From the NCBI GenBank assembly GCA_003645885.1, contig QNCW01000003.1:1-32386 (forward strand): DNA of 32,386 nucleotides. Direction: 5' to 3'. The stretch is from Candidatus Latescibacterota bacterium (GTDB lineage Bacteria; Latescibacterota; 4484-107; B68-G9). The position numbers and the translations under genes are program-made. Shown here one piece after another: positions 1 to 13,800 of the stretch. Within the stretch, counting starts at the first letter, position 1; every line of letters begins with the position of its first letter. The notes beneath the pieces were generated by a model. That model was given only the letters and a program-made list of their open reading frames with translations. It did not search any database and was not told the DNA's origin.

Positions 1-2592
1 ATCGTAGATCGCAAGGTGGACCTCCGCAGGGGACGGGAGGGAGAAGGGGATGACGGTGCATGAGTTGAACGGGTTGGGATAGTTCCGTCCGAGTCCAAAT
101 CCGCAGGGCACCTGCCGGGGGTCTTCCTCCACCCAAGGGGCAGGGGCCAGGACCAAGGCCTTCCTGGACAGATACCTCACAGCCGGCCAATTCTTCTCCT
201 GCCAGATGGCCCTCACTAACACCCTTCCCGGCTTCCAGCCTTCAGTGCTAACTTCGCCCTCATAGACGGTCCCCTGTTTCACCATGACGACGGGGATTAT
301 TTCCCCATCGGGCCTTTCGACGGTGACATCCATCTCCCCCTTCCAAAGGGGATGATGATAGCTCAGCTCCGCTTTTATCACGATCTCCTCCCCAACCGTC
401 GGCTCTTCGGGGAAGACCTGAAGCTTCACCCCAACTACCCCATCGTAACAGCTCTGGTAGTGAGAACCTTCTCCAGAAAGGTTAAATCCGTAAGGAGCGA
501 AACTTTCCGCCCACTGGGGAGTTCCGGGGACATCGCCACTTGAAAGCATCTCCTGCCACTCTTCGTCGGTGAGCCTATCTGCCATGGGATGCTTGAACTC
601 GAAATACGAGAACATCGCTCCCTGGGCCACCACGAGCTCACCTTCCACCTCCACGATGACGTAAAGGTTCAAAGGGCATCCAACTCCTTCCTCCAAACAA
701 AGCCCCGAGTTCGGGTCGGTGTGCACATCGGCTACCACCGCCATATGGTCGTCCGTATCGCTTTCTATCTGGCCGCTTATCTCGGGAGGGAAGGTGACAA
801 GATCTTCTAAACGACCCCCTATCGAACAGATAAGTTCGTATTCTTCGAAGTCCAAGCCCTCGTTCATCAGCTCCTTCTCCGAGATTAGCTTTAGCTTCAA
901 AAGTAACGACTCAAAGGAGTTCAGCTTCTTCTCCACCTCACCTATCAGCAACCCCCTTTCCTCCAGCCCTGTCCTCATAAACCTGGCCAGGGCCGCAAGC
1001 CTGGCATATAGGTGCGGGTTGGGCTCCACGTATCCATGGACGAGGCCCGGAGGAAAGCCACTCGCTCCGACAGTATAGCTCTGCTTGGCATACAGGATGG
1101 TATCGTGCCTGAGTTCCGCCCACGAGCCCAGAGCAGTTATTAGCTCCTTGTCAGCCCATGCGGGGTTCTGCATGAAGGAGGGATATCCCTCGCCCTTGGG
1201 GAAAAGTAGAGGCATAAGGCAATAAAGCCAGTTCCAGTATAGGTTCTGAGCCCATACCTCCTCATCGAAGGAACGAAAGAGCTGCCTTAGGGAGTCAACT
1301 TTGGCCGGATATTCTGGATAAAGCTCACCCTGATGGTACACCGAATCCAATATCGCAGCAGCCCTCTCGGAGCCCAGCACCGAGAGCACGTCCAGACCCA
1401 TCGGAAAGAGCCTGCCCCGCACCTTCGAATAGACAAGTTCCGTGAATATATGGGAATCCGGTATATACCTCTGCCCCATGAACCTGAACCCCTTGGTCAC
1501 ATCCTCGAACTCCTCCCACTCCCATACCCAGGAGGAGCAGATTGCAGGGTCGCGAAGCTTCTTGGCCTCCTCTATGAACTGCGAAAGCTTCCCATCTTCG
1601 GCGAATCCTTCCAAGGGAAGGTTCCGGTAGCCCGGCCCATACACCTTCCTTATAAGCTCCAGGTACTCCTGCACAGTCAAATCGTCCGCCCTCCCGACGA
1701 AGAAGACGGTGGGGGTGTATATCTCATCCCACACCTCCAGAGCAGGCCGACCTTCGACCTCGGTCCGATCTAAGGCAAGCACTATGTAGATGGCCCCGAG
1801 GGTCTCCTCCTTGCCCTTTTCTATTCCTCCCTCCCGAGGAAGTGGTTCGAGCCTGAACATCATCCTGCCGTACCACATCATAGCCTTGAAATACCTCCTC
1901 AGGACCTCGTTCCTGGTATAGTGCCCCCTCGGCTTATACTGGCTGTAGTCCTCCATGTACCCGAAGATGGGAGAAGATTCGAAACCCCTATGGGCATCTA
2001 TCAGGGCCAACTCCGCTTCCACCAGATCCCTTACATACTCCGGGACCGGAGTATCCGGGTCCAATAGCTTAGTAGCCACGGAAAGATAGGCCACATCCCT
2101 CCTCAAGACCTCCTTGACCTTAGGATTTTCTACCTGGTTATACATCTCCTCCATCTGTTCCAGCATCGCCTCGTTCAGAGCATCCAGGTCAGAGCAGAAC
2201 CTCCCGACCTCCAAAAGCCTCAGAATATTGTCGTAGAGCACGTGGAACGTGTGGAGCACGCAGTCGGTCGTAACGAATATGGGGACCTGCCTTTCCATCA
2301 GCTCCTTGTAGATGTCATACATCTGCTTGTAATTACTTGGACTTGCGAAGAAGCCGTTCTTCAAAAGAAGGGCCTTCTCCTCCTCGCCGAAGGAGAACTT
2401 CCCTAAGTTCGCCACGTTGGAGAAGTCCGGCTCGACCACATAAGGCTTGACCTGCGGGACGACTTCCACAGGATATGGCCTGTAAACTCCGAACTCTGTC
2501 CTCACCTCGTGCCTTATCTCCGCCAACATCCCCGCCGATACATCCAATGCTGCGAAGAGGGCCAAAACGAGCGATGCGCCCCTTTTCCACAT
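1..2592 (-). CDS. DUF3160 domain-containing secreted protein with an Ig-like linker and a T9SS type A/FlgD-like C-terminal domain (3'-partial, >864 aa; absent from the ORF track)
   Basis: Translated by hand from the ATG at 2592 (SD AGGAGGAGGTGAG upstream); no in-frame stop down to position 1. N-terminus MWKRGASLVLALFAALDVSA is signal-peptide-like. DUF3160-type motifs: PIFVTTDCVLHTFH, EDYSQYKPRGHYT, YFKAMMWYGR, FRFMGQRYIPD, WAELRHDTILYAKQSY, GYVEPNP, VADVHTDPN, RLTDEEW. The end reads ...FGLGRNYPNPFNSCTVIPFSLPSPAEVHLAIYD (NYPNPFN at 64-84). Confidence 0.9.
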   Translation of the reverse strand, partial: MWKRGASLVLALFAALDVSAGMLAEIRHEVRTEFGVYRPYPVEVVPQVKPYVVEPDFSNVANLGKFSFGEEEKALLLKNGFFASPSNYKQMYDIYKELMERQVPIFVTTDCVLHTFHVLYDNILRLLEVGRFCSDLDALNEAMLEQMEEMYNQVENPKVKEVLRRDVAYLSVATKLLDPDTPVPEYVRDLVEAELALIDAHRGFESSPIFGYMEDYSQYKPRGHYTRNEVLRRYFKAMMWYGRMMFRLEPLPREGGIEKGKEETLGAIYIVLALDRTEVEGRPALEVWDEIYTPTVFFVGRADDLTVQEYLELIRKVYGPGYRNLPLEGFAEDGKLSQFIEEAKKLRDPAICSSWVWEWEEFEDVTKGFRFMGQRYIPDSHIFTELVYSKVRGRLFPMGLDVLSVLGSERAAAILDSVYHQGELYPEYPAKVDSLRQLFRSFDEEVWAQNLYWNWLYCLMPLLFPKGEGYPSFMQNPAWADKELITALGSWAELRHDTILYAKQSYTVGASGFPPGLVHGYVEPNPHLYARLAALARFMRTGLEERGLLIGEVEKKLNSFESLLLKLKLISEKELMNEGLDFEEYELICSIGGRLEDLVTFPPEISGQIESDTDDHMAVVADVHTDPNSGLCLEEGVGCPLNLYVIVEVEGELVVAQGAMFSYFEFKHPMADRLTDEEWQEMLSSGDVPGTPQWAESFAPYGFNLSGEGSHYQSCYDGVVGVKLQVFPEEPTVGEEIVIKAELSYHHPLWKGEMDVTVERPDGEIIPVVMVKQGTVYEGEVSTEGWKPGRVLVRAIWQEKNWPAVRYLSRKALVLAPAPWVEEDPRQVPCGFGLGRNYPNPFNSCTVIPFSLPSPAEVHLAIYD

Positions 2593-2598
2593 TTAGGC

Positions 2599-3648
2599 TC
2601 ACCTCCTCCTAAGTGTCTTCTTGACCTCGCCCCAAGTTACGGGATCTGCCGACAGGAGCTCGAGCTCGAGGGCTTCGGCCAGCTTTACCGGATCGACCCT
2701 ACCTTCGTGTAGGTCCCCCCTGTACGATAAGCTTCCGTGCTCCATGTAGTGGAGGGCGATGTAGGGTACCTCAACCTTGATGTCCTTTAAGGGGTTGACT
2801 ATTACGATGTAGCCCATGTTGACGTATTCGCCGCATATCCCGCACCGCTCTAAGCCCCTCATCGCATATTCCACCTTGTAGGGATGGGTTTTACTCTGGG
2901 CGGTGTCCAGGTCTTCTATGGCCTTCAGCATAACCTTTGCAAGCTGCACCCCGTCGGGCACGCCGTCGTCGTCCGTGTCCGGGTCATCGGGATCGGTGCT
3001 AAGCTTGGTCTCCTCTGAGTCCTTAAGCCCGTCATTATCCCTGTCCTCGGCTATGTAGATTACATGGGGATCGGTCCCCCCGCCCACAGCCGGATGCGAC
3101 GGGAAAAGTATCAAGCATGCCGCAGCTATGCCCCCGACAAGGCTCTTAAGAAGGCCCCGGCCCGAAGCATGCGAAAGCAACTTTTCGCATTCGTCCCATA
3201 TGCGCCTATACTCGGGGAGCAAAAGCGGAGTCACCCGGCATCCCCTGCAGGCCCAGTGGAAGAGGAGCCTCTGGTCCTCGGGAGGAAGGCCGTTCTCGTG
3301 GTACCCCTCCTCTATGAACTCCTCCACGCAACAGGGCGGATAACCGAACAAGAAGCCCTCGAGCCTCATATCGTCCTCGGACTTTGCCACAGGGCTTCCG
3401 GAGAACCTGCGCCTGTATACCTCTATGTAAGAACGGTTAAGTCCGAACAGGAGCTCTTGGACGGTCGTTCCCGAGGGAAGCTTCCTTTCGACGACCACAG
3501 GTCCGAGGCCGAGGGATTCGAGGGTCCTTATCTCCTTCCTCCCGAACGGTCCTTCCCATCTGCTTATGGGCTTTAAGCCCTCGGCCGTCAGAAGCGTCAA
3601 ATACGCCAGCTCAGGGTCCAACCGGACGAGCTTCCCAGCGTCCTTCAT
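2599..3648 (-). CDS. Bipartite hypothetical protein: Cys-rich DUF483-like N-terminal domain, internal signal/TM segment, thrombospondin type-3-like Ca-binding repeats, CxxC/His domain, WGxVK tail
   Basis: 349 aa, SD GGAGGAGG upstream. Motifs EGFLFGYPPCC and HWACRGC, hydrophobic stretch LVGGIAAACLILF, DRDNDGLKD...DTDDDGVPDG, CGIC, HYMEHG, end SADPVTWGEVKKTLRRR. The DUF483 resemblance rests on the GYPxCC motif only. Confidence 0.75.
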   Translation of the reverse strand: MKDAGKLVRLDPELAYLTLLTAEGLKPISRWEGPFGRKEIRTLESLGLGPVVVERKLPSGTTVQELLFGLNRSYIEVYRRRFSGSPVAKSEDDMRLEGFLFGYPPCCVEEFIEEGYHENGLPPEDQRLLFHWACRGCRVTPLLLPEYRRIWDECEKLLSHASGRGLLKSLVGGIAAACLILFPSHPAVGGGTDPHVIYIAEDRDNDGLKDSEETKLSTDPDDPDTDDDGVPDGVQLAKVMLKAIEDLDTAQSKTHPYKVEYAMRGLERCGICGEYVNMGYIVIVNPLKDIKVEVPYIALHYMEHGSLSYRGDLHEGRVDPVKLAEALELELLSADPVTWGEVKKTLRRR

Positions 3649-3669
3649 CGTGTTCCTCCTCCTTGCACA

Positions 3670-3699
3670 AATATAGCTTCTCTACCTTATCGGCGTCAA
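3670..3699 (-). promoter_or_regulatory. Putative sigma70 promoter for the 349-aa/DUF3160 gene pair
   Basis: TTGACG-N18-TATATT on the minus strand, directly after the upstream terminator. Confidence 0.55.
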
Positions 3700-3700
3700 G

Positions 3701-3744
3701 AAAAAAACGACGGGCCAACCGAGAGGCCTCGGCACGGCCCGTCG
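3701..3744 (-). terminator. Intrinsic terminator after the 209-aa secreted protein gene
   Basis: Minus strand CGACGGGCC-gtg-CCGAG-gcct-CTCGG-tt-GGCCCGTCG followed by T7. Confidence 0.8.
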
Positions 3745-3759
3745 GGCGCCGGAACTCAG

Positions 3760-4389
3760 CTACCTGAAGCCGGCCTTCACCTTCCCCCAGGATGAGGGTT
3801 CGACCGCCGTAGCACCGAAGATCTTCCGGAGGGTTTCGGCGTCGTAAGCCTCTTCTTCGATGGCTTCGGAAGCAACGGAGTTCCTTTCACATATAGCCAA
3901 CACCTCGAAGATAACTTCGGGGTCAGAGGCGACCACCTCCGCCTTTATGGTCACCTCCCTGCCGACCCACCCTTCGAGGTCGATGGTGCTACTTTGAAGC
4001 ACGACCTTGTCGTCGAGGGTATAGGTGCCGTCGTCCCTCTTTAAGAGCGTCCCGTAGCCACCTATTACCTGTTGATGAACTTCATCCCCCGGCTCTGTGG
4101 TCTCGTGATGTTCCTCGATCTCCAGCACTTCGATCGTGAGGGGGTCTTCGGATACCACCTCTCCTTTGACGACAACCTCTTTGCCGACGTATGGCTCGAG
4201 GTCGATTCCGCCGCTCCGCAACGCTATGCCGTCGAGGAGATAGGTCCCGCCGTCCTTCTGGAGTATCCCTCGAAGGACCACTATATCGGGGTCGTCTTGG
4301 GCCATAACTAAGGAGACGATAGCAAAAACCACGACGGCGGACCAGAACAGTGCCTTAACTACCGGCCAGAACAACTTCTTCCGTTCCAT
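3760..4389 (-). CDS. Secreted protein with two ~52-aa beta-rich (OB-fold-like) repeats and a WGxVK C-terminal tail
   Basis: 209 aa; SD AAGGAGG; Sec-type signal peptide ending ...SLVMA|QDD; two aligned repeats; ends ATAVEPSSWGKVKAGFR. Confidence 0.85.
   Translation of the reverse strand: MERKKLFWPVVKALFWSAVVVFAIVSLVMAQDDPDIVVLRGILQKDGGTYLLDGIALRSGGIDLEPYVGKEVVVKGEVVSEDPLTIEVLEIEEHHETTEPGDEVHQQVIGGYGTLLKRDDGTYTLDDKVVLQSSTIDLEGWVGREVTIKAEVVASDPEVIFEVLAICERNSVASEAIEEEAYDAETLRKIFGATAVEPSSWGKVKAGFR
3892..4269 (-). repeat. Internal protein-domain duplication in the 209-aa protein
   Basis: aa 41-91 GILQKDGGTYLLDGIALRSGGIDLEPYVGKEVVVKGEVVSEDPLTIEVLEI versus aa 113-166 GTLLKRDDGTYTLDDKVVLQSSTIDLEGWVGREVTIKAEVVASDPEVIFEVLAI. 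Confidence 0.85.
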
Positions 4390-4420
4390 CTTTCCCTCCT
4401 TTTCATTTCCGTCCTCCTTC

Positions 4421-4436
4421 GCTCATCCGGATGAGC
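4421..4436. repeat. Perfect 16-bp palindrome in the 5' leader of the sigma54 transcript
   Basis: GCTCATCCGGATGAGC. Confidence 0.6.
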
Positions 4437-4452
4437 TTCGTCATACTTTTGA

Positions 4453-4469
4453 AGCAACATATGTGCCAA
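4453..4469 (-). promoter_or_regulatory. Sigma54 (RpoN) -24/-12 promoter
   Basis: Minus strand TTGGCACATATGTTGCT matches TGGCAC-N5-TTGCW with exact GG-N10-GC spacing, about 65 bp upstream of the ATG at 4389. Confidence 0.85.
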
Positions 4470-4563
4470 CTCCTTGGGTCCAGAGGCTAATCCTTTAAAC
4501 CGTTATAAAACCGAGATTTTTGAGATTTAGTGATAACACTGAATGTTCCGGAGGAAAGGAACC

Positions 4564-4601
4564 TTTCAAATTTCCGAAGCTCGGCTTTCAGATTTCTGAA
4601 A
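4564..4601. promoter_or_regulatory. Pair of related dyad sites (candidate enhancer/UAS for a sigma54 activator)
   Basis: TTTCAAATTTCCGAAG (4564-4579) and TTTCAGATTTCTGAAA (4586-4601; perfect TTTCAGA-N2-TCTGAAA), 22 bp apart, about 120-160 bp upstream of the predicted sigma54 start site. Confidence 0.55.
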
Positions 4602-4625
4602 TAGTGAAGGCCCTCGATGAATCCC

Positions 4626-4654
4626 TTGACCGGAGGGGAGGCTTGTGGTATATT
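4626..4654 (+). promoter_or_regulatory. Putative sigma70 promoter for the DUF4398 lipoprotein gene
   Basis: TTGACC-N17-TATATT with an extended -10 TGn. A weaker second candidate, TTGCAT-N17-TATTTT, lies at 4708-4736. Confidence 0.6.
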
Positions 4655-4785
4655 CCAGGGGAGAGATGGTCACTCCTTTCATTCTGGAGTGCGGCACAGA
4701 AAAAAACTTGCATATCGGCGGACATCTTATTATTTTTAGCAGAGGACGAGACGAGCATCCACCCTCAAAAAGGAGGTACGGTGCT

Positions 4786-5463
4786 ATGAAGGGAAAGGTT
4801 ATGATGTTGGGAGCCCTGTTGTCCTTAGTAGCATGGGGATGCGCCAAACCCCCTACCCAGGAGATGGAGGCGGCCAAGGCGGCGATCAAGGCGGCCAGGG
4901 ATGCGGAGGCTCAGGTATACGCCCCCGACGAGCTTAAGGCGGCGGAGAAGGCCCTCTCCGACGCTGAGGCCAAGGTCGAGGCGAAGAAGTATAAGGAAGC
5001 CAAACCGTTAGCTATCAAGGCCAAGGAGCTGGCCGATAAGGCCAAGGAACTGGCTGTAAGGAACAAGGAGAAGACCCGCTCGGATGCGGAGGTCGCCTTG
5101 GACGACGCTTCCAAAGCCATCTTTGAAGCCAAGGAGGCGTTGGAAGCCGCTGCCGGGACGCTGTCCAAGGTCGGCAAGGTCCTGCCCGGAAAAAAGAGGG
5201 AAGAGTTCGATAGCGAGTTGGACTCCCTAAAATCCTTGGTCGAGCAGATGGAGAAGGACTTAGAGGCCGGAAGGATGGCGTTCAACAGGGGCGCCTACAA
5301 GGACGCCCTGGAAGGGGCAGAAGATTTGGTGGGGAAGGCCGGGACTTTAAAGGACGAACTTTTGGCCTTAAAGGATAGGATAGTTAAGGCTCGTCCCCTT
5401 CCCTGGTACGAGCGCCTGAAGAGGAAGAGGTTGGAGGAGCTTAGGAAGCAAAAGGGTTCCTGA
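4786..5463 (+). CDS. DUF4398-like alanine-rich coiled-coil lipoprotein
   Basis: Start moved to the ATG at 4786 (SD AGGAGGT). MKGKVMMLGALLSLVAWG|C lipobox, then KPPTQEMEAAKAAIKAARDAEAQVYAPDELKAAE, typical of DUF4398. Confidence 0.8.
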   Translation: MKGKVMMLGALLSLVAWGCAKPPTQEMEAAKAAIKAARDAEAQVYAPDELKAAEKALSDAEAKVEAKKYKEAKPLAIKAKELADKAKELAVRNKEKTRSDAEVALDDASKAIFEAKEALEAAAGTLSKVGKVLPGKKREEFDSELDSLKSLVEQMEKDLEAGRMAFNRGAYKDALEGAEDLVGKAGTLKDELLALKDRIVKARPLPWYERLKRKRLEELRKQKGS

Positions 5464-5481
5464 CATAACCGGTGTCACGCC

Positions 5482-5516
5482 CAGCTACGGCCTTCCGCCG
5501 TAGCTGTTGGCTTTTT
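5482..5516 (+). terminator. Putative intrinsic terminator/hairpin between the lipoprotein gene and gltA
   Basis: CAGCTACGGC-cttcc-GCCGTAGCTG followed by TTGGCTTTTT. Confidence 0.65.
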
Positions 5517-5529
5517 ATGGAGGGGGGAG

Positions 5530-6936
5530 ATGGCGAGAGCTGGAACCATCCCAAGGCAGAGGATGCCCGAACAGGACCCCCAGGTCCGCATCCACAACTT
5601 CCGGGAGGTCCCCTTGGGGTACACCCCAGAGCTTGCCATGAGGGAGGCGGAGAGGTGCCTGCAGTGCAAGAACCCGCAATGTGTCAAGGGATGTCCCGTG
5701 GAGGTCGACATCCCGGGGTTCATCCGGCTGATCCGGGAGGGGGACTTCCTCGGTGCTGCACGCAAGATAAAGGAGACCAATAACCTCCCTGCGATATGTG
5801 GCAGGGTTTGTCCACAGGAGACGCAGTGCGAGAAACTCTGCGTGCTCGGGAGGAGGTACGAGCCCGTGGCCATAGGGAGGTTGGAGAGGTTCGCCGCCGA
5901 CTACGAGAGGGAGCACGGCTACGATCCTCCTGCTCTGCCTCCTCCCACGGGGAAGAAGGTAGCGGTCGTGGGCTCGGGACCTTCGGGGCTAACCGCCGCT
6001 GCGGACCTGGCCAAGATGGGGCATAAGGTAGTGATATTCGAAGGGCTACATGTGCCCGGAGGGGTTTTGGTGTACGGCATACCGGAGTTCCGTCTGCCTA
6101 AGAGCATAGTACAGGCGGAGGTGGACTTCGTCAGGAGCCTCGGGGTGGAGATACGCACCAACTGGGTGATAGGCAAGATACGCACCGTGGACGAGCTTCT
6201 GGAGGAGTACGATGCGGTCTACATAGCGACCGGAGCGGGCGCGCCGACGTTTATGGGCATCCCCGGGGAGAACCTGAACGGGGTGTACTCCGCTAACGAA
6301 TACCTTACCCGTGTCAACCTTATGAAGGCTTATCAGTTTCCCGAAGCTGACACCCCTGTGCGGAGGGGGAGGAAGGTGGCGGTGATAGGTGGAGGGAACG
6401 TCGCCATGGACGCAGCGAGGACGGCCAGGAGGCTCGGGGCGGACGTCACGGTGATATACCGCCGCTCACGGGCGGAGATGCCGGCGAGGCTCGAGGAGGT
6501 ACACCATGCCGAGGAGGAGGGGGTCAATTTCCAGTTCCTCACCAATCCGGTCCGTTACATAGGGAACGACGATGGATGGGTGGTGGCGGCCGAGTGCATA
6601 AGGATGGAGCTTGGGGAACCGGACTCCTCGGGAAGGAGGAGGCCCGTGCCCGTGCCCGGCTCCGAGTTCACGATAGAGGTCGACCAGGTGATAGTGGCCA
6701 TAGGGACACACGCAAATCCTTTGGTCCCTTCTACCACCAGGGACCTCAAGCTCAACGAGAGGGGATATATAGTCGTGGACCCCGAAACCGGGGCCACGAG
6801 CAGGGAAGGGGTCTTCGCAGGGGGCGACATAGTCACGGGAGCTGCGACGGTCATAGAGGCCATGGGAGCCGGAAAGAGGGCGGCCAGGGCCATAGATGCC
6901 TACCTCAGGGGGACGGATGGAGCTGAACGACTTTAA
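5530..6936 (+). CDS. gltA: NADPH-dependent glutamate synthase beta-like (homotetrameric GltA / NfnB / SudA family) Fe-S flavoprotein
   Basis: 468 aa; CLQCKNPQCVKGCP and CGRVCPQETQCEKLC Fe-S motifs; GSGPSG FAD site; YGIPEFRLPK; GGGNVAMDAAR and YRR NADPH site; GGDIVTGAATVIEAMGAG. Confidence 0.9.
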   Translation: MARAGTIPRQRMPEQDPQVRIHNFREVPLGYTPELAMREAERCLQCKNPQCVKGCPVEVDIPGFIRLIREGDFLGAARKIKETNNLPAICGRVCPQETQCEKLCVLGRRYEPVAIGRLERFAADYEREHGYDPPALPPPTGKKVAVVGSGPSGLTAAADLAKMGHKVVIFEGLHVPGGVLVYGIPEFRLPKSIVQAEVDFVRSLGVEIRTNWVIGKIRTVDELLEEYDAVYIATGAGAPTFMGIPGENLNGVYSANEYLTRVNLMKAYQFPEADTPVRRGRKVAVIGGGNVAMDAARTARRLGADVTVIYRRSRAEMPARLEEVHHAEEEGVNFQFLTNPVRYIGNDDGWVVAAECIRMELGEPDSSGRRRPVPVPGSEFTIEVDQVIVAIGTHANPLVPSTTRDLKLNERGYIVVDPETGATSREGVFAGGDIVTGAATVIEAMGAGKRAARAIDAYLRGTDGAERL

Positions 6937-7816
6937 GCGTTACCTCCGACCTGAGGTGGTCTCCCGCTTGGGAAGGACCGAGCTTGTGGCCAGGCTCGTC
7001 GTCGAGGGGTTCCTTACCGGGCTCCACAGGAGCCCTTACCACGGGTTTTCGGTGGAGTTCGCGGAGTACAGGCCCTACCTCCCCGGGGACCCTCCGAGGG
7101 ATGTGGACTGGAAGGTGTACGGCAAGACCGACAGGCTCTACGTTAAGGAGTACGAGGAAGAAACCAACCTTAAGGCCTACATAATGTTGGATGGAAGCAA
7201 TTCCATGGGCTTCACATCCGGGGAGGTAACCAAGTTCGAATATTCCAAGTACCTCGCCGCTTCCCTGTGTTACCTCCTCCTGAGACAGAGGGACGCCGTA
7301 GGCCTTGCGGTCTTCCGGGAGGGGATGACCTCCTACCTCCCCCCACGCTCCGTCCCCTCGTACCTTTACGAGCTCCTCCGCCGTCTGCCGTCCTCCCCCC
7401 AGGGGAGGACCCAACTCGGCCCGGCCCTGCACTCCTTAGCCGAGCGCGTAACCAAGAGAGGGCTCGTGGTCGTGCTCTCGGACCTTATGGACGACCCGGA
7501 GGAGGTCCTCGCAGGGCTCAAGCACCTAAGGCACAGGAAACATGAGGTCATAGTCTTCCACATCTTGGACCCTGCGGAACTTTCCTTTCCCTTCCAGGAA
7601 CCGGCCGTATTTCGTGGCATGGAGGGTGAGGGGGAGGTGAGCTTGGAGCCTTGGCATATAAGGGAGCACTACAGGAGGATGGCCTCTGATTGGGTCGGAA
7701 GGCTCGAGGGGGAGTGCAGGGAGCATGGGATAGACTACACGCTCCTGAGGACCTCGGACCCCTACGACGTTGCCCTCCTCAGATACCTGGCCCGGCGCAG
7801 GGTCGTGGCCTCGTAG
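6917..7816 (+). CDS. DUF58 domain-containing (vWA-like, MoxR-associated) protein
   Basis: GLHRSPYHGFSVEFAEYRPYLPGD, VDWKVYGKTDRLYVKEYEEETN, LDGSNSM, VVLSD. The likely start is the ATG at 6917, overlapping the gltA 3' end. Confidence 0.9.
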   Translation: MELNDFKRYLRPEVVSRLGRTELVARLVVEGFLTGLHRSPYHGFSVEFAEYRPYLPGDPPRDVDWKVYGKTDRLYVKEYEEETNLKAYIMLDGSNSMGFTSGEVTKFEYSKYLAASLCYLLLRQRDAVGLAVFREGMTSYLPPRSVPSYLYELLRRLPSSPQGRTQLGPALHSLAERVTKRGLVVVLSDLMDDPEEVLAGLKHLRHRKHEVIVFHILDPAELSFPFQEPAVFRGMEGEGEVSLEPWHIREHYRRMASDWVGRLEGECREHGIDYTLLRTSDPYDVALLRYLARRRVVAS

Positions 7817-7835
7817 CACCCGTCGGAAGGATTTC

Positions 7836-7879
7836 AAACTTATAGGGGAGGCGGCCTTAGGCCGCCTCCCCTAAGTTTT
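7836..7879. terminator. Bidirectional intrinsic terminator between convergent DUF58 and fhs
   Basis: 14-bp stem TAGGGGAGGCGGCC-tta-GGCCGCCTCCCCTA flanked by AAACT and AGTTTT. Confidence 0.85.
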
Positions 7880-9630
7880 CAGAACAGCCCCTTCGTGAGG
7901 CCGGTCTCCAGGTCTACGTCCACGTCCACGAAGGCAGGTCTGGACGGAAGCCCTGGCATGGTCTGCATGGTCCCGCAGATCGGGTAGTAGAACCCGGCCC
8001 CTACCGATGCCCTTATGTCCCTTATGGGGAGCTTGTAGCCCTTCGGTGCCCCGAGCCAGTTGGGGTCGTGGGATATAGAAAGGTGGGTCTTGGCTATGTT
8101 GATGGTCATGGGAGAGAAGCCTATCCTTTCGAACATCTTCAGCTTCCTGTCCGCCTCGGGGTCGTACTCGACGCCGTCGGCCCCGTGGACCTTGGTGGCG
8201 AGGATGTGGATCTTCTCCCTTACGGGGGTATCGTCGTCGAACAACGGCTTGAACTCGTGGGGCTTCTCCACCGCCTTGAGGACCTCCTCCGCAAGCTCCA
8301 GGGCCCCTTCCCCACCCTTGGCCCAACATTCCACCACAGCGGCTCCGTCAGCTCCGAGTTCTAAAGCCATCTTCTTCACAAGTTCCAGTTCCTTCTCGGT
8401 GTCGGAGGTGAAGCGGTTTATGGCCACCACCACGGGGACCCCGAAGAGCTTGACTATCTCTATGTTCTTGGCTAAATTCGTCCTACAGCCCTTCTCCAGG
8501 GCCGGGAGGTTCTCGGTCTCGACGGCCTCCTTGATCTTGGAGTACTTCATCCCTGGCTTGAAGTGGAAGGCCCCTCCGTGCTGCTTCAGGGCCCTCACCG
8601 TGGCCACGACGACGGCGCAGTCGGGCTTTATCTCGTAACCTGCCCACCTCGCCTCCCTACAGGTCACCTCGCAGAACTTGGTGAACCCACAGTCCGCTCC
8701 GAAGCCGTTCTCCGTGACCACGTAGTCGGCGAGCTTCAGGGCCACGAGGTCGGCTATGGTGGAGTTGTTGCCGTGTGCCACGTTCGCGAACGGGAAGCCG
8801 TGGCATATCATGGGGTGCCCTTCGGTGGACTGGACGAGGTTGGGCTTTATGGCATCCTTGAGTAACACTGTCATAGCTCCTGCGACCTTCAGGTCCTCGC
8901 AGGTCACGGGCTTGCCGTCGTAGGTGTAGCCCACGACCGCCCTCCCTATCCTCTCCCTCAGATCCTTCAGCCCTGTGGTGAGGGCGAGTATGGCGGCGGT
9001 CTCGGTGGCCACTGTTATGTCGTAGCGGGCCACCCTTGGGTACCCGTTCGCCCTCCCTCCGAGCCCGACTACGACCTCCCTCAGGGCCCTAGCGTTCACG
9101 TCCACGCAGTAGGTCCAGGTTATGTTGAGGGGGTCTATGTTCAACTTGTTCTTGTGGAGTATGCTCGCATCTATGGCGGCGGCGCAGAGGTTGTGGGCCG
9201 TGTCCACGGCGTGGATATCGCCCGTGAAGTGGAGGTTGATCTGCTCCATAGGTAGGGCCTGGGAGTACCCTCCACCTGTGGCACCTCCCTTTATCCCGAA
9301 GGTGGGACCCTTGGAGGGCTCCCTGAAGGCGTTTATGACCTTCTTCTTCATGAGCCAGAGGGCCTGTCCGAGGCCGAACGAGACCACGGTCTTCCCTTCC
9401 CCTAAGGGGGTCGGGGTTATCGCCGTCACCGCTATCAACTTCCCGTTCGGCCTGTCCTTGAGCCTCTCCATCACTTTGGCGTAGTCTATCTTGGCTATGT
9501 ACCTCCCGTAAAGCTCTATCTCCTCCTCCAGGAGCCCAGCGTCCTTGGCCACATCCACTATCGGCCTGAGCTCGGCCTCCTGGGCGATCTCAAGGTCCGA
9601 AGGGACCGGCCACCTCTTCTTTACAGGCAT
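7879..9630 (-). CDS. fhs: Formate--tetrahydrofolate ligase
   Basis: 583 aa; TAITPTPLGEGKT, GPTFGIKGGATGGGYSQ, INLHFTGDIHA, PFANVAHGNNS, VATVRALK, AKTHLSISHDP, MQTMPGLP. Confidence 0.96.
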   Translation of the reverse strand: MPVKKRWPVPSDLEIAQEAELRPIVDVAKDAGLLEEEIELYGRYIAKIDYAKVMERLKDRPNGKLIAVTAITPTPLGEGKTVVSFGLGQALWLMKKKVINAFREPSKGPTFGIKGGATGGGYSQALPMEQINLHFTGDIHAVDTAHNLCAAAIDASILHKNKLNIDPLNITWTYCVDVNARALREVVVGLGGRANGYPRVARYDITVATETAAILALTTGLKDLRERIGRAVVGYTYDGKPVTCEDLKVAGAMTVLLKDAIKPNLVQSTEGHPMICHGFPFANVAHGNNSTIADLVALKLADYVVTENGFGADCGFTKFCEVTCREARWAGYEIKPDCAVVVATVRALKQHGGAFHFKPGMKYSKIKEAVETENLPALEKGCRTNLAKNIEIVKLFGVPVVVAINRFTSDTEKELELVKKMALELGADGAAVVECWAKGGEGALELAEEVLKAVEKPHEFKPLFDDDTPVREKIHILATKVHGADGVEYDPEADRKLKMFERIGFSPMTINIAKTHLSISHDPNWLGAPKGYKLPIRDIRASVGAGFYYPICGTMQTMPGLPSRPAFVDVDVDLETGLTKGLF

Positions 9631-9667
9631 CTTACCCCCCTTCCGTTTGGGCCTATCTTTCTATTCA

Positions 9668-9731
9668 AATTTACGAAATAACCTTTTAGATGTCAAGGAA
9701 GCTTGACACCGGGAGGAGGTTTATGTAACTT
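9668..9731. promoter_or_regulatory. Back-to-back sigma70 promoters for fhs (-) and hrcA (+)
   Basis: Minus strand: TTGACA(9696-9691)-N17-TAAATT. Plus strand: TTGACA(9703-9708)-N17-TAACTT. Confidence 0.7.
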
Positions 9732-9756
9732 TAAACCCTAGAAAGGGGGGATGTCC

Positions 9757-10791
9757 ATGACGGAAGAGCTTTCCGAAAGGGACCGCACGATCCTTCATTC
9801 CGTGATACATACGTATGTAGAGACCGCCGTGCCGGTCGCCTCGCAGACGATATGCAGGAGGTACCGGTTGGGGCTCAGCTCCGCCACTGTCCGCAACACT
9901 ATGATGGAGTTGGAGGACAAGGGGTACATAAGCAGACCCCACGTCTCCGCCGGGAGGGTCCCCACCGACAAGGGATACAGGTTCTACGTGGATGTACTCA
10001 TGCCCCGCAGGTACCTTTCGGAGTCGGAAAAGGAGACCTTCAGACGGAAGGTCCGGGACGCCGTGCGGGAGGAACAGGTGGACCGGATTTTAGAGCAGGT
10101 GGCCCGGGCGTTGGCCGATATGGCCAAACAGCTTGGGGTCGTTTTGGCACCCAGCTTCGAGAACGGCATCTTGGACAGGATAGAACTGGTCCCCCTGACT
10201 TCGCAGAGGTTGCTTCTAGTGCTCACCATAAGGTCCGGGCTTGTAAAGACGGTGGTGCTTAGGGTGGAATCTCGGGTCAGACCGGAAGATGTGGAGGAGA
10301 CCCGTCAGGTCCTCAATCAGAGGCTCGCCGGTCTGACCATCGGGGAGATAAGGCGTTCCATCGGTGAGCGTATGCGAGGGGTCGGAAGGGGGGACCCTAA
10401 GGTGCTTCAGGTCATAGTGAAGGAAGCAGAAGAGCTGTTTTGGTTCAGTCCATTCGAGGACCTATATATAGGCGGTATACCTTACATCTTCTCCCAGCCC
10501 GAGTTCAGGAACCCGAGGAGGGCGAAGGCCATCGTGAGCCTTCTCGAGGAGAGGGGGGCTGTGACCGAAATGTTGGCCGAGAGGATGGACCGGCCCGGGG
10601 TGCACATATCCATAGGACATGAGCACCAAATCAGGCCCATGCAATCCTGTAGCTTACTTACCGCCACCTATCAGGTAGGGAACGTTTCTGGGGTTGTGGG
10701 GGTCCTGGGGCCGACCCGTATGAGATATTGGAAGCTTTCCGCCTTGGTGCAGTACGCCGCCCAGCTCATAGAGGAGCTGTTGAGGAATTGA
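9757..10791 (+). CDS. hrcA: Heat-inducible transcription repressor HrcA
   Basis: PVASQTI, LSSATVRNTMMELEDKGYISRPHVSAGRVPTDKGYRFYVD, C-terminal GVLGPTRMRY. The ATG at 9757 fits the SD spacing better than 9751. Confidence 0.95.
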   Translation: MTEELSERDRTILHSVIHTYVETAVPVASQTICRRYRLGLSSATVRNTMMELEDKGYISRPHVSAGRVPTDKGYRFYVDVLMPRRYLSESEKETFRRKVRDAVREEQVDRILEQVARALADMAKQLGVVLAPSFENGILDRIELVPLTSQRLLLVLTIRSGLVKTVVLRVESRVRPEDVEETRQVLNQRLAGLTIGEIRRSIGERMRGVGRGDPKVLQVIVKEAEELFWFSPFEDLYIGGIPYIFSQPEFRNPRRAKAIVSLLEERGAVTEMLAERMDRPGVHISIGHEHQIRPMQSCSLLTATYQVGNVSGVVGVLGPTRMRYWKLSALVQYAAQLIEELLRN

Positions 10792-10807
10792 GGGGCCTTC
10801 GCACTTC

Positions 10808-10837
10808 TTGACTTTCGTTTCCTTCCCTTGTTAATTT
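10808..10837 (+). promoter_or_regulatory. Putative sigma70 promoter for the TPR-crp-CNNM-era operon
   Basis: TTGACT-N18-TAATTT with TGn extension, ending 7 nt before the GTG at 10845. Confidence 0.55.
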
Positions 10838-10844
10838 ACGTTCC

Positions 10845-13800
10845 GTGACATTTCTACTCCTCCTTCTGGCGAACTTCCACCCGGCTCGGGCCGGGGACGA
10901 TTTCCAGTTCGCCCGCAAGCTTTACAGGGATGGTTTCTACGAGCTTGCGGCAGCCCAACTTAGATGTTTCCTGGAGGAAGACCCCTCCGGCCCCGATGCC
11001 CCGGAGGCCCTCCTCCTCATGGCCCACGCCCTGTCCAAGGAGGGGAGGTGGAAGGAGGCAGCGGAAGCTTACGGACGTTTCTTAGCGAGGTACCCCGAGG
11101 ACATATGGGCTGGGGAGGCCCTTTGGGGGAGGGCTTTGAGCCTCTCCAAGCTCGGCAGACACCTCGAGGCTGCCGAGGCCTTCGTAGAACTTTACCGCCG
11201 CATTCCAGCCGGGAAGCGAGCGGTTTCGGCCCTTCTGAAGGCCGCCGAAAGTTTCAGGAGGGCCGGGAGACCTGACAGTGCCCTGAGCGTCCTCGGGGAG
11301 CTGGAGAGGACGTTCCCCTCGGCAGAGGAGGTCAGGTACGAGAAAGCTCTATGTCTTAAGGCCTCCGGGAGGCTCCGGGAGGCCCTCGAAGAGCTTGAGG
11401 GTCTGTCCCGGCCGGACGCCCTCCTGACCCTCGGCCGTATATCTTTGAGCTTGGGAGAGGTGGCCCGGGCCGAAGGGGCCCTGAGGGAGCTCGAGGAGAA
11501 GTTTCCCGAGGAAAGTTCAACCGCCCTCCTGGCCTTCGAGATGGCACAACACAGCTTAGAAGAAGGGGACGAGGACCGAGCCCGCCGCCTGTTCGCATCT
11601 GCCCTCGGCTCCTCCCTGCCGGAGGACCTCGTTCCCTCGGCCCTTTTGGGTGCCGCAAGGGCCTCCCGCCTTACGGGCGACGCCTCGGACGCCCTCGCCC
11701 GCTGCGATGCATTCCTGAACAACTTCCCCGGACATCCCCTGGAATCCGATGTCCTGGCCGAGAGGGTCCTCTGCCTTCTAGTCTTGGGGGAGGAGGAAGA
11801 TGCCCTTTCCACCGAAAGGAGGCTCCGACGGGAATTCCCGGACTCCCCCTTACTTCCCCTCGTATGGAAGGCCTTAGGAGATTTCTACAGGGAAAGGGGC
11901 GAGCTTTTAGATGCCGTGAGGTACTACAAAAGTTGCTTGAGGAAGGAGCATGGGGAGGACGTGGCGCTGGCCTTAGCCGAGACCTACCGCTCCCTCGGAT
12001 GGTACGAGGAGGCCCTCAGGATATATCAGGGAACGAGCTGGGAGGACTCGGCCGCCTCGGCACAGTGGGGACTTGCCGAGTGCTTGGAGGAGATGGGGGA
12101 CCCGAGGGCGGCAGGGGAGTACGCTCGCTTCCACAGGCGTTTCCCCTCCGACCCAAGGTCGGAGGAGGCGAAGAAGAAGGAATCGTTCCTCAAGGCTCGC
12201 TCCCCGAACTTGGAAGGGGCCATCCGGGCCCTGGCCGAGGCCGAAAGTGGATCGGAAGAAGCTTTGGCGGAGGTTTACCTCTCGCTCGGAAGGCCCGAGG
12301 AGGCTATGAGGCTCCTTTCGAAGGAGGTGGAGGACACCACTGCGTCTGATACCGTGCTCTACCTGTTCGCCAGGAGCGCCCTGCTTTCCGGAAGGAGGCA
12401 AGAAGCCCTCTCAGCCTACAGGAGGCTGATCTCTCGGTATCCGGAAAGCCCCTACTCCGAAGAGGCCTCGCTTTTCGTCCTGAGGGAGAAGCTCTCCCAT
12501 ATACCGGAAGGACGGGGACTTTACGAGGCCATGCTTTCCGGATACTCCGAACTTCTCAGGCGCTACCCCTCAGGCGACAGCACGGACGCCATAATCTTCG
12601 GCATAGCAAATGCCTACAGGGGACTTGCCTCCTACGACAGTTCGGAGGTCGCGAGGGCCCTCTCATGGATGGACAGGCTTTGGAGGTACTACCCCGAAAG
12701 TTCCTACGCCGACGACGCCATGTTCTGGGCCGGAAAGCTAGCCCTCAGACGAGGTGCCCTCTCCTATGCGGATTCGACCCTCTCCAAGCTCGTCGAGGAA
12801 CATCCCGAAAGTCCCTTTTCGCCGAAGGCTTACGAGCTTCTGGGGGAGATAGCCTTAAGAAGTGGTCGGGAGGACCTCGCCGCCCGATACTGGGAGGAGG
12901 CTTTGTCCAGCCTTCCCGAGGACGAGGAGCTCTTAGGGCGCCTGGCCGAACTCTACATCTCGCTCGGGAGCCCGGAGAAGGCCGTCCCTCTCTACCGGAG
13001 GCTCGTGAGGTTGAGGGAGACCCCAGAAAGGCTCGAGGCCTTGGCCTCTTCCTGCCTTATGGCCTCCCTTAAGGAGGAGGCCGTAAGGTGGTACGGGGAA
13101 CTGATCTCAAAATATCCCGACCTCGGAGATTCGGTCCGCATAGCCTACGGCGAGCTTTTGGCAGAACTTGGAAGGAAAGAGGAGGCCGTAGAGGTCCTAA
13201 AGAAGGTCGAATCCCCCGGGGCCCTTTCCCTCTTAGCGGACATGCTCTACGAACTTGGCAGGTACGAGGATGCCCTCGCCGTCTACGGTAGGCTCGGAGC
13301 GCTCGGGAAGGAGGATTTCGGCAGGAAGATCCTTTGTCTTATAACCTTAGGAAGAAAGGAGGAGGCTCGGAGGCATATAAAGGCCTTCCACAAGAGGTTC
13401 GGAAAGGGGGGGGAATGGGACGACAGGTTCAACGTGGCCTTCGGAAGGGAGGCCTTGGATAGGGGCTTGTACAAGACCGCAAGGGAATATTTGAGAAAGG
13501 TCAAGGGAGGCAAATACCTCCCCCAAGCCCGCTATTATATAGCCCTTTCCTACTTTAAGGCCAAGGAGATGGACAAGGCCATAGAGTCCTTCTTAAGCCT
13601 CGTAAAGATGGACCCCGAGGCCTCCATCCTGAGGAAGGCCCATATGCGCTTGGGGACCTTATATTACCTCACAAGCCAGTACGCCCTGGCAGCGGACTCC
13701 TACAGGAAGGCCCTCTCGGAAGGAATCTCGGGCAGGGAGGCCCAGGAGGCCCGTTTCAACCTGGCCCTCTCATACGAAAGGCTCGGAAGGTACGAGGAGG

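Follow-up and report, generated by a model that had tools for sequence, protein, structure and literature searches.

The window analysed here, the whole stretch of 32,386 nucleotides, belongs to a 1.9-Mb Latescibacterota-like MAG (G000). Three minus-strand genes are described here, and two of them encode proteins with the same short C-terminal peptide, called the tail below. The features are as follows.

1..2592, minus strand: DUF3160 protein, truncated at its 3' end where the contig stops; its last residues (..NYPNPFNSCTVIPFSLPSPAEVHLAIYD) begin a T9SS-type CTD
2599..3648, minus strand: 349-aa protein, predicted bitopic, ending in ..SADPVTWGEVKKTLRRR
2599..2652, minus strand: divergent tail of the 349-aa protein, ending in ..DPVTWGEVKKTLRRR plus stop, 2 residues longer than the canonical tail
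3760..4389, minus strand: 209-aa protein, exported; hydrophobic leader at the N-terminus, a pair of DUF5818-like repeats, and a tail at its end
3760..3813, minus strand: canonical tail of the 209-aa protein, ending in ..ATAVEPSSWGKVKAGFR plus stop, which matches the tail-plus-stop DNA pattern and fits the 59-tail consensus described below

The DUF3160 protein matches its Pfam family at E = 8.6e-211, and its C-terminal residues fit PNPFN..(I/V)YD, a pattern also seen in the remaining T9SS CTDs that G000 encodes. The 209-aa protein matches Pfam DUF5818 below the cut-off (E = 5.7e-5) and has only 3 homologs in a search of 5.8 billion proteins. A longer homolog with a canonical tail is encoded in genome G029 (L053:6353-7435) in the same gene order as in the window, and the full order of DUF3160, 349-aa and 209-aa genes recurs at that locus. 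The 349-aa protein consists of a conserved Cys/His N-terminal domain (residues 1-160), a hydrophobic segment (~165-190), TSP3-like acidic repeats, a CxxC/VNMGY domain and the tail. The alignment of its homologs has invariant columns, its Pfam matches to TSP3_bac and DUF483 are weak, and its best fold match in the PDB, 2guk (a protein of unknown function), reaches only E = 0.09.

An earlier note on this DNA had claimed that the two tail-bearing proteins are otherwise unrelated and that both possess an export-type hydrophobic segment. The first claim was borne out, as BLASTP of one protein against the other found no significant similarity (best E = 1.1) and both ends match the motif. The second holds for the 209-aa protein, which has an N-terminal leader, and not for the 349-aa protein, in which the segment is internal. 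For the latter the prediction is a bitopic membrane protein, in which a folded N-terminal domain precedes the hydrophobic segment, and not a protein secreted in the classical way; it appears to be held in the inner membrane and is a poor fit to full export. It does carry the motif, in the divergent form. Among its homologs, P0004 (SASWGRIKKMYR), P0006 and P0015 have tails of canonical length, and P0002 and P0003 have the long variant seen in the window.

The C-terminal tail and its carriers

The tail is real and is strongly enriched at C-termini. A six-frame scan of G000 (9,181 ORFs of at least 60 aa) has shown that 11 ORFs end in [TV]-A-V-E-x-[ST]-[ST]-W-G-x-[IV]-K-x-x-[FL]-[KR], with W[GAD] variants allowed, and the tail thus extends beyond the two proteins in which it had been noticed. 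The shorter pattern WG.[IVLM]K occurs 19 times in these ORFs; nine of the 19 occurrences are at most 6 residues from the ORF end, against 0.85 expected (binomial P = 4e-8). In a non-overlapping ORF set the pattern lies near the end in 8 of 11 cases, with 0.24 expected. One of the nine near-end matches, an ExbB/MotA-like membrane protein (C171) with the end RRWGRMKQAA, was not counted as a tail; in eight of the nine, four residues follow the Lys-containing motif. A DNA pattern consisting of the tail plus a stop codon gave nine matches in G000 and the reversed control pattern gave 0. Eight of these matches are true ORF ends and the ninth (C66:8320) is an off-frame chance match.

A consensus built from 59 pattern-selected tails has the core [TV]-A-V-E-x-[ST]-[ST]-W-G-x-[IV]-K-[AS]-x-[FYL], about 16 residues in length, with the Lys usually 4 residues before the end. 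The W-G and K are near-invariant at fixed spacing and the upstream T-A-V-E block is also conserved, across several phyla. In the unbiased upstream columns of the 59 tails, V occupies position -14 in 79%, A position -15 in 64% and E position -13 in 61%, and V-E-P precedes S-S-W-G in ~28%. The motif originally described, (S/T)WGxVK..R, is shorter than this conserved unit, which also takes in the [TV]-A-V-E block. Only 9-11 residues follow the V-E-(P) block, two of them Lys/Arg, and they form no TM helix, in agreement with the earlier note. No Pfam or NCBIfam family matches the last 20 residues of any of the 11 tail proteins. Literature searches with the motif strings returned nothing relevant, although supplementary motif lists may exist outside the searched text; a search on Eisenbacteria or Latescibacteria together with type IX secretion and C-terminal signals found no paper, and the papers returned for Krumholzibacteria, Eisenbacteria, T9SS and sorting domain named neither phylum. 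The tail is absent from curated family libraries and is apparently undescribed.

The carriers are mostly proteins with the features of export. Signal-peptide-like N-termini were found in 9 of the 11 tail ORFs of G000 and, among tail ORFs from fetched loci that are complete at the 5' end, in 134 of 157, compared with 349 of 1,447 control ORFs (24%) by the same lenient heuristic, so that the suggested enrichment for signal peptides is present. The passenger domains vary and include CBM9-like, cohesin-like, CBM4_9-like, DUF5818 and TSP3 domains. The tail is retained in orthologs down to ~25-50% identity; within the CBM9-like orthologs P0045-P0059 it is kept at 52-100% identity.

In AF2 models the passenger domains are confident and no domain follows them; the last 18-20 residues, with pLDDT of 37-48, are not packed against the domain and the tail is drawn as a short helix. 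The model of the 349-aa protein has a mean pLDDT of 84.6 with low confidence only at residues 165-190 and 332-349, and a helix is drawn at 338-348 within a tail of pLDDT 47-48. In the models the tail is a loose extension whose short helix has low confidence. For the last 10 residues the mean hydrophobic moment is 0.45-0.52 at 100-110 degrees, above that of shuffled sequences (0.35, maximum 0.38 of 1,000) and of other ORF ends (0.33), and it is 0.50-0.52 at 170-180 degrees. The description of the tail as amphipathic would fit the first comparison, but the moment is equally high at the strand angle, so strand periodicity fits the tail as well as helix periodicity does.

Spread of the tail and its relation to type IX secretion

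Homologs of two tail-bearing families place the tail in the position of the T9SS C-terminal domain. Among 44 homologs of the 349-aa protein, with ends judged by eye, eight end in the tail and seven in a CTD-like end; six of these seven carry precomputed PF13860/PF18962 matches, and P0007 was confirmed. For the CBM9-like family, the best 150 of 2,129 representatives were sorted by regex classes of their ends. In 92 of these sequences the motif stands 2-5 residues before the end; in 32 it is followed by a longer extension but still falls within the last 40 residues (6-13 residues from the end). A further 10 are longer proteins with CTD-like ends, and 16 have other ends. P0077 (407 aa) and P0108 (385 aa) are composed of the lectin plus a FlgD_ig CTD. 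In both families, therefore, the tail, a T9SS CTD or nothing interchange at the same position. Because of the 32 lectin homologs with longer extensions, the free C-terminus may lie outside the signal. A resemblance of the tail to the CTD strand YD..G(R/Q)x(V/I)(R/K)xL is off by one residue in register and was not counted as homology.

The tail is present in several candidate phyla. Its spread within Latescibacterota is patchy, and other carriers occur in Eisenbacteria, Krumholzibacteriota, Effluviviacota and unnamed MAGs, with up to 84 copies per genome; the occurrence in Latescibacterota and Eisenbacteria that the earlier note had mentioned was thus correct. To our knowledge, Bacteroidota lack the tail, and we know of no tail-bearing organism in culture.

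G000 encodes the sortase of the T9SS, PorU, together with PorV and SprA, all over their cut-offs, and has at least 23 CTD matches; its 24 CTDs show PNPFN..YD..G..V..L..SGVY..K..L.R. A survey of 168 genomes of the phylum (families f1-f14) compared counts of the tail pattern with those of a control pattern. Full-length PorU was found in all of the tail-rich families f1-f5, f7-f9 and f14. In f11-f13 (56 genomes) tail counts are at background (0-2, control 0-3), and the best PorU E-values are only 1e-48 to 1e-83, from listed matches that span model positions ~5-740 and fall below the cut-off. The T9SS is not sufficient for tails, as f6 (13 genomes) and f10 (5 genomes) have full-length PorU yet only 0-2 pattern matches; CBM9-like orthologs sought in these two families gave one weak match and nothing else. 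In other phyla, all 21 tail-rich genomes tested (19-84 pattern matches, controls 0-2) have PorU at E <= 1e-93. Eighteen of the 21 matches are over the cut-off, and two of the remaining three run into the end of a contig. Among the three genomes with few tail matches (2-4), PorU gave no match in two and a partial match in one. Two MAGs, labelled Desulfobacterales and Acidobacteriota, have 2-3 tails with no PorU match; they may be mis-binned. The association with the T9SS is confounded by phylogeny because the lineages are all related FCB-type phyla. The lineage-specific export route suggested by the earlier note is doubtful, since the tail is found only where PorU, and hence a known T9SS, is present, bar the two MAGs with 2-3 tails.

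Candidate readers and alternative explanations

By hand count, a T9SS-CTD gene is found no more than 5 kb away from six of G000's 11 tail genes, compared with an estimate of ~1.4 expected from 24 CTD genes in 1.9 Mb. This gene order favours a link with the T9SS, as do the f5, f8 and f14 cassettes described below, in which a PorV-family barrel gene lies close to a tail gene. Clustering of the neighbours at 40 loci plus G000 returned only cargo-type and cassette genes and no reader. Several envelope proteins were considered as readers and rejected. A giant barrel (C56:3464-6082) was found in f1-f9 and f14, the tail-poor f6 among them, but in none of 5 tail-rich genomes from other phyla. A lipoprotein (C58:9294-9992), considered as a general reader, has the same range within the phylum and was found in 0 of 16 tail-rich genomes elsewhere; its homologs in f4, f6 and f9 are only distant and non-adjacent. 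Similarity to a C16-type PorV paralog tracks kinship over the 168 genomes and is not discriminating. A C66-type PorV paralog is missing from the tail-poor f6 and f10-f13, but as a general reader it fails in the tail-rich G007, G023 and G030, which have no close match. In G169, G174 and G175 the gene next downstream of a tail gene encodes a PorU-like C25 paralog; this was discounted because it is a single orthologous synteny, and no such arrangement was found in Latescibacterota; the paralog is present in the tail-less f13 and absent from the tail-rich G007. An ESMFold2 complex prediction that paired G000 PorV (residues 22-342) and the C-terminal 45 residues of the CBM9-like tail protein, run without controls, gave a score of 0.00 and a mark of 0.32, which is no evidence on binding either way. 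The profiling for co-occurring machinery proposed earlier has found PorU in all tail-rich genomes tested, while none of the candidate partners is universal.

The earlier idea of a sorting signal gains from the sharing of the T9SS CTD slot and from the portability of the tail among mostly signal-peptide-bearing proteins, and loses from the lack of a reader in the profiles. The explanation put forward here, with the chances for and against it about evenly balanced, is that the tail is a portable tag of ~16 residues, read by an outer-membrane machinery protein that accompanies the T9SS, which sends cargo to the surface or holds it there. A flexible linker attaches the tail to Sec-exported proteins whose folds are many and unrelated; the peptide is probably disordered until bound and may be a short helix, strand or hairpin afterwards. 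The reader could be a barrel of the PorV/PorP type, acting as shuttle or anchor, or else a peptidase resembling PorU. Such a putative reader may route tagged cargo to the cell surface or retain it there, and with a reader in that position the linear tail would serve in place of the folded CTD.

The neighbouring genes also suggest a narrower role, in which the tail is an assembly or docking peptide that plugs small lectin-like proteins into partners encoded beside them (a 232-258-aa lipoprotein, a PorV-family barrel or giant barrels) and is not a general sorting signal. The models for such docking would be the binding of a secretin S-domain to its pilotin lipoprotein, or donor-strand complementation. 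Cassettes in f5, f8 and f14 consist of a tail-bearing lectin gene, then a lipoprotein gene, then a PorV-family barrel gene. Among the lipoprotein matches listed (G000-G029), 21 of 28 start within ~400 nt downstream of a tail stop by hand comparison; a PorV-like barrel gene follows the lipoprotein gene in 9 of 12 fetched loci, with a tail-motif lectin directly upstream in 5 of the 9. Lipoprotein-like downstream neighbours of tail genes (4 of 37 and 10 of 63) also exceed those of background ORFs (8 of 471 and 18 of 545), and giant outer-membrane barrels recur in 8 tail loci. The tail is generic, however, and the partners are confined, with these queries, to f1-f9 and f14 of one phylum; genome G007 has 14 tails but one distant, non-adjacent lipoprotein homolog, and most tail genes, including both in the window, have no lipoprotein or barrel neighbour. 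This role is accordingly quite unlikely.

The failure of several profiles to find a reader would be expected if no dedicated reader existed and the tail anchored itself to a membrane or to LPS as a short amphipathic helix with Lys/Arg and a Trp at its flanks. C-terminal helices of PBP5 or MinD attach proteins to the membrane surface in this manner, and both the hydrophobic moment at 100-110 degrees and the helix drawn by AF2 in both models are consistent with it. We consider such an anchor fairly unlikely, as strand periodicity is equally strong, the helix has low confidence, and nine residues are very short for a stable anchor. A lipid-binding helix would keep only its character, whereas the near-invariant W-G/K spacing and the T-A-V-E block are the pattern of a motif read by a protein; restriction to PorU-bearing genomes and exchange with the T9SS CTD would also be left unexplained. 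These last two points weigh as well against a processing or turnover signal without a role in localisation, recognised in the periplasm by a C-terminal protease or a PDZ protein, because such proteases are universal. A reader of free C-termini could well use an exposed, flexible peptide whose distance to the end is usually fixed, but Tsp/Prc-type proteases prefer apolar ends and the tail ends are charged (K/R), and the motif is set back from the end in the 32 extended homologs among the best 150 of 2,129; we rate turnover as very improbable. That the tail is the signal of an exosortase (PEP-CTERM-like) or of another sortase, cleaved at 'VEP', is hardly credible. The V-E-P found in some tails and a truncated Exosortase_EpsH match in G000 (C35:4-162, 61 bits) speak for it, but the tail has neither a TM helix nor a basic cluster after one. 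Exosortase_EpsH (PF09721) is present in only 10 of 168 phylum genomes, which contradicts this reading: 2 of 76 in f14, 0 in f2, f4, f5, f7, f8 and two same-genus genomes, and 5 of 13 in the tail-poor f6. As a general reader the exosortase was rejected, being missing from most tail-rich genomes of the phylum.

The preferred reading, of a portable tag read by outer-membrane machinery, can tentatively be carried further. It is possible, though we would not expect it, that the linear 16-residue tag takes the place of the folded CTD and represents a third class of signal for type IX secretion or attachment, read by a specialised PorV/PorP-type shuttle or a PorU-like peptidase, or acting by trans binding to CTD-bearing neighbours with co-export. 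There are precedents for the preferred reading: PMC11969387 indicates that T9SS signals can shrink to a single 3-stranded sheet and describes 'short' 3-stranded CTDs from Prevotella intermedia, and PMC12618676 indicates that type B CTDs require cognate shuttle barrels, often encoded beside the cargo. In the recognition described in PMC10994853, SprA/PorV bury ~1,850 A2 of the folded CTD, whose conserved motifs serve chiefly to set its fold; a 16-residue peptide would be unable to match such burial, which counts against reading by the T9SS. If this further proposal is true, the T9SS-type machines of Latescibacterota, Eisenbacteria, Krumholzibacteriota and allies handle up to ~80 extra cargo proteins per genome that are missed by CTD-based predictors.

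Bacteria use short C-terminal signals to direct proteins to the cell surface, and LPXTG, PEP-CTERM and the T9SS CTD have each led to a dedicated machine. The present tail caps as many as 84 proteins in a single genome, in several phyla for which metagenomes are the only source, and its recognition would improve the prediction of secretomes and surface proteins in phyla rich in lectin-, cohesin- and CBM-like carriers for polymer degradation. It would also provide a handle for finding an envelope component and would test whether the T9SS reads a linear peptide instead of a folded domain. The contrast between tail-rich families and the PorU-positive, tail-poor f6 and f10 offers a comparative design for the reader hunt.

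Comparison with known sorting systems

The closest comparison is with the type A CTD of the T9SS (TIGR04183, PF18962 Por_Secre_tail, PF13860), which routes proteins through that system and is removed by PorU. Both lie at the extreme C-terminus of unrelated Sec-exported proteins, in the same slot, and the tail-rich genomes tested all encode PorU, with SprA and PorV also in G000. The tail has a conserved Lys near its C-terminus, and a near-C-terminal Lys is given in PMC10994853 as the one functionally important conserved CTD residue. Unlike the CTD of roughly 60-100 residues, the tail has 16, no folded beta-sandwich in AF2 models and no Pfam/NCBIfam match. It lacks motifs B (PNPF-type), D (GxY) and E (K-hydrophobic-x-K/R), bar one Lys and a hydrophobic-hydrophobic-K/R end, and is missing from the T9SS-positive families f6 and f10. 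With type B CTDs and their cognate PorP/SprF-like shuttle or anchor barrels (PMC12618676, PMC9143113), the tail would share the status of a signal class apart from type A and the frequent location of cargo genes beside an outer-membrane barrel gene, here the lectin-lipoprotein-barrel order of f5, f8 and f14. Type B CTDs are however described in these sources as folded domains with five motifs, and the barrel beside tail genes is of the PorV family, not PorP/SprF, and in many tail-rich genomes is neither adjacent nor recognisable.

The signals of PEP-CTERM/exosortase, LPXTG, GlyGly-CTERM and MYXO-CTERM resemble the tail in being short, bipartite and C-terminal on many unrelated exported proteins. 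The tail differs in having no TM helix and no basic stop-transfer cluster, and in the scarcity of exosortase noted above. A secretin S-domain is bound by a small outer-membrane pilotin lipoprotein, and the tail resembles such pairs, as well as the anchors of PBP5 and the MinD MTS, in being a short, flexible C-terminal peptide that is predicted, with low confidence, to become helical. In one gene cassette a tail gene also lies directly upstream of a small lipoprotein gene. Unlike the S-domain, the tail is found on dozens of unrelated cargo families per genome and its lipoprotein partner is not universal; unlike the lipid-binding helices of PBP5 and the MinD MTS, its sequence is far more strictly conserved.

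Tail carriers in the window and the genome

Translation of the ORFs bore out the C-terminal tail that the earlier note had described on two window proteins, which are otherwise unrelated, as it had also claimed (209-aa vs 349-aa protein, best BLASTP E = 1.1). Three adjacent minus-strand genes are concerned.

3760-4389, minus: 209-aa protein; N-terminal hydrophobic leader; two DUF5818-like repeats (Pfam E = 5.7e-5, below cut-off); end ..ATAVEPSSWGKVKAGFR
2599-3648, minus: 349-aa protein; end ..DPVTWGEVKKTLRRR
1-2592, minus: DUF3160 protein (Pfam E = 8.6e-211); the contig end cuts the gene where a type IX secretion (T9SS)-type C-terminal signal domain (CTD) starts (..NYPNPFN..AIYD)

This CTD start matches the pattern of the other CTDs of the genome. 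The gene order of window 1-4389 (-), namely DUF5818-like tail protein, 349-aa-type tail protein and DUF3160 protein with T9SS CTD, recurs at 6353-11400 of locus L053 from G029, a genome of a different family (f8) of the phylum. The shared order suggests that two tail proteins and one T9SS cargo form an operon. Members of the 349-aa family share an invariant N-terminal motif (GYPxCCVExF ... LFHWACxxC) ahead of a hydrophobic segment, which is followed by one to three CxxCG..VNMGY modules. AF2 gave the window member two confident domains and a low-confidence hydrophobic segment (165-190), and the sole fold match was 2guk (E = 0.09), a P. gingivalis protein of unknown function. These proteins look like bitopic envelope proteins of an undescribed kind. 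Of the two carriers, described earlier as exported, the 209-aa protein has a leader; the 349-aa protein lacks a signal-peptide-like start and looks anchored in the inner membrane, a warning that at least some of the carriers might stay in the periplasm for good.

The motif scan and signal-peptide comparison proposed in the earlier note were carried out on the whole MAG (1.9 Mb, 175 contigs, 84% complete; the window is contig C3). Its closest homologs with a name carry the labels Candidatus Latescibacteria or Latescibacterota. Among 9,181 six-frame ORFs of at least 60 aa, WG.[IVLM]K occurred 19 times, with 9 occurrences within 6 residues of the ORF end vs 0.85 expected (P = 4e-8); one of these nine, an ExbB-like membrane protein, was not counted as a tail. 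Once W[AD] variants are included, 11 ORFs end in the tail, which is thus not confined to the two window proteins. The DNA pattern [ST]W[GA]x[ILVMF]Kxxx[KR..]-stop gave 9 matches, one of them off-frame noise, vs 0 for the reversed control. Under one lenient heuristic applied to tail and control ORFs alike, signal-peptide-like starts were present in 9/11 of these tail ORFs, in 134/157 in fetched loci and in 24% of controls. The exceptions in the MAG are the 349-aa protein and a 161-aa ORF on contig C161, shortly downstream of a leader-bearing ORF (4690-5196) on the same strand; the two together occupy 4066-5196 (minus) and are probably a single gene interrupted by a frameshift or assembly error. 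Passenger domains are varied (CBM9-like, cohesin-like, CBM4_9-like, DUF5818, TSP3). No Pfam or NCBIfam match covers the tail in any of the 11 proteins, and a literature search of main texts found no description of it.

Anatomy and exchange with the T9SS signal

Conservation was read from 59 Latescibacterota tails selected only by the W..K..stop part, and the upstream columns, which lie outside the selecting pattern, are also conserved.

Residues by position from the C-terminus (59 tails)
-16: T/V (75%)
-15: A (64%)
-14: V (79%)
-13: E (61%)
-11, -10: S/T
-9: W
-8: G
-6: I/V
-5: K
-4: A/S
-3: L
-2: F/Y
-1: K/R

In this set the pattern itself fixed W, K and the terminus; these are also invariant in homologs found by similarity, independently of it. 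Over the last 10 residues, the hydrophobic moment reaches 0.45-0.52 at 100-110 degrees vs 0.35 in shuffles, is equally high at 170-180 degrees and therefore does not discriminate helix from strand. AF2 models of a CBM9-like carrier (22-row alignment; residues 291-310 at pLDDT ~37, helix drawn at 301-308) and of the 349-aa protein (helix drawn at 338-348) combine confident domains with low-confidence tails, and the tail is for this reason predicted to be a flexible appendage outside any domain.

CBM9-like orthologs retain the tail at 52-100% identity. The ends of 44 homologs of the 349-aa protein were classed by eye, and the best 150 of 2,129 representatives found with the CBM9-like family profile were classed by regex.

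C-terminal ends in two tail-bearing families
349-aa homologs (n = 44), tail: 8
349-aa homologs, T9SS CTD-like: 7 (6/7 with precomputed PF13860/PF18962; P0007 confirmed)
349-aa homologs, ..FYRLSW domain: 4
349-aa homologs, acidic D-x-N-x-D-type repeats: 12
349-aa homologs, nothing or truncated: remainder
CBM9-like (best 150 of 2,129), motif 2-5 residues from the end: 92
CBM9-like, motif within the last 40 residues, then 6-13 more: 32
CBM9-like, longer proteins with CTD-like ends: 10
CBM9-like, other: 16

Homologs P0077 and P0108 consist of the lectin and a FlgD_ig CTD, an architecture matching lectin plus tail. Since tail and CTD alternate at the ends of homologs in both families, the tail occupies the slot where relatives have the T9SS signal. 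The 32 extended representatives indicate that the final residues and the precise spacing to the C-terminus are less fixed than the stop-anchored pattern implies. In g43, one genus of f14, a conserved, HTERWYYRGVSE-like extension of 12-13 residues comes after the lectin motif SWG(R/S)LK(A/S)SL; it overlaps the lipoprotein gene start and places the motif off the very C-terminus (L209:5700-5814, L215:5380-5479, L218:6631-6700). Locus L055 (contig C31 of genome G003, 4348-6869) holds a tandem tail-gene array with a 70-aa fragment and, 41 nt apart in different frames, two remnants that encode tails; these resemble degenerate gene duplicates and not a frameshift site.

Distribution and co-occurrence with PorU

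The DNA pattern was counted in 168 species genomes of the phylum (families f1-f14; reversed control 0-3 per genome).

Tail-pattern matches per genome
f1: 7-9
f2: 4-14
f3: 20
f4: 14
f5: 3
f7: 9
f8: 0-12
f9: 5
f14: 1-13 (at least 1 in 76/76 genomes)
f6, f10-f13: 0-2

With a stop-free pattern, three f6 genomes gave 1-2 possible tails each and one f12 genome gave none. A stricter pattern, run on 185,579 species genomes, matched at least 120 stretches; the 80 records listed are titled Eisenbacteria/Eiseniibacteriota (24), Gemmatimonadota (5, at least one of which falls in the phylum of the MAG), Latescibacterota (3), Krumholzibacteri- (3), Effluviviaceae, Desulfobacterales and Acidobacteriota (1 each) and other (42). 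Genomes behind listed loci had 19-84 matches in 16/20 cases (controls 0-2), and the nine genomes of one small phylum had 16-64 each.

The MAG itself encodes the T9SS sortase PorU (708 bits) with PorV adjacent, SprA and at least 23 CTD-like matches. Co-occurrence profiling, also proposed earlier, linked the tail to this system. Among the 168 genomes PorU is full-length in f1-f10 and f14; f11-f13 reach no better than 1e-48 to 1e-83 in E-value, and the matches listed for them are partial. Every tail-rich family has PorU and no PorU-less family has tails; f6 and f10 have PorU and almost no tails. Outside the phylum, PorU was matched at E <= 1e-93 in 21/21 tail-rich genomes tested (18 over the cut-off), and 2/3 genomes with 2-4 tail matches, whose tail contigs are possibly mis-binned, gave no PorU match. 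The association is consistent, with related genomes counting as non-independent observations.

Neighbouring genes and the candidate partner

ORFs flanking tail genes were clustered for 40 fetched loci and the MAG, and no peptidase-like neighbour recurred. Recurrent neighbours are T9SS-CTD proteins of ~620-880 aa, giant outer-membrane barrels and, directly downstream, a gene for a 232-258-aa lipoprotein, which by hand comparison begins within ~400 nt of the tail stop in 21/28 of the matches listed. Families f5, f8 and f14 share the order lectin with tail, lipoprotein of ~250 aa, PorV-family barrel, ~1,080-aa protein and ExbB/ExbD-like genes (within loci L207-L218, for example L209:4825-10832 and L215:4460-10495); giant barrels and T9SS-CTD proteins are often upstream. 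As a general reader of the tail, the lipoprotein, the PorV-family barrel and the giant barrel were each rejected, none being general to tail-bearing genomes. Exosortase was excluded by its profile across the genomes of the phylum; the MAG has a truncated Exosortase_EpsH match (61 bits) at the start of contig C35 (4-162, plus), and 0/2 same-genus genomes match. On contig C50 of the MAG (4387-7571, plus), a T9SS-CTD protein gene precedes two tandem PorV-family barrel genes, possibly a cargo and its dedicated shuttle. A 1,363-1,393-aa PorU-like C25 paralog, matching PorU model positions 4-539, directly follows a tail gene in three genomes of a single small phylum (G169:C14:70838-73553, G174:C1:1381254-1383941, G175:C6:452288-454994), which is one orthologous synteny.

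The exchange of the tail with CTDs and its restriction to PorU-bearing genomes point to T9SS-associated outer-membrane machinery as its partner, and a putative T9SS-linked sorting or tethering tag is given about an even chance. That the tail is an autonomous anchor is rather unlikely; strict conservation of specific residues across several phyla speaks for a protein reader and against a helix that only binds lipid. A peptide docking to the products of the cassette is a slimmer prospect, and minor alternatives together share the rest.

Known T9SS recognition, as described in PMC10994853, buries a folded CTD in SprA/PorV. Such burial is beyond a 16-mer, and the tail, if T9SS-linked, must therefore work differently from a CTD. 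A T9SS-linked tag might be routed by a specialised shuttle or anchor; alternatively, a PorU-like enzyme could act on it, or it could bind CTD cargo in trans. The lectin-lipoprotein-barrel cassette resembles the type B CTD systems, in which, according to PMC12618676, cargo is often encoded with cognate shuttle barrels.
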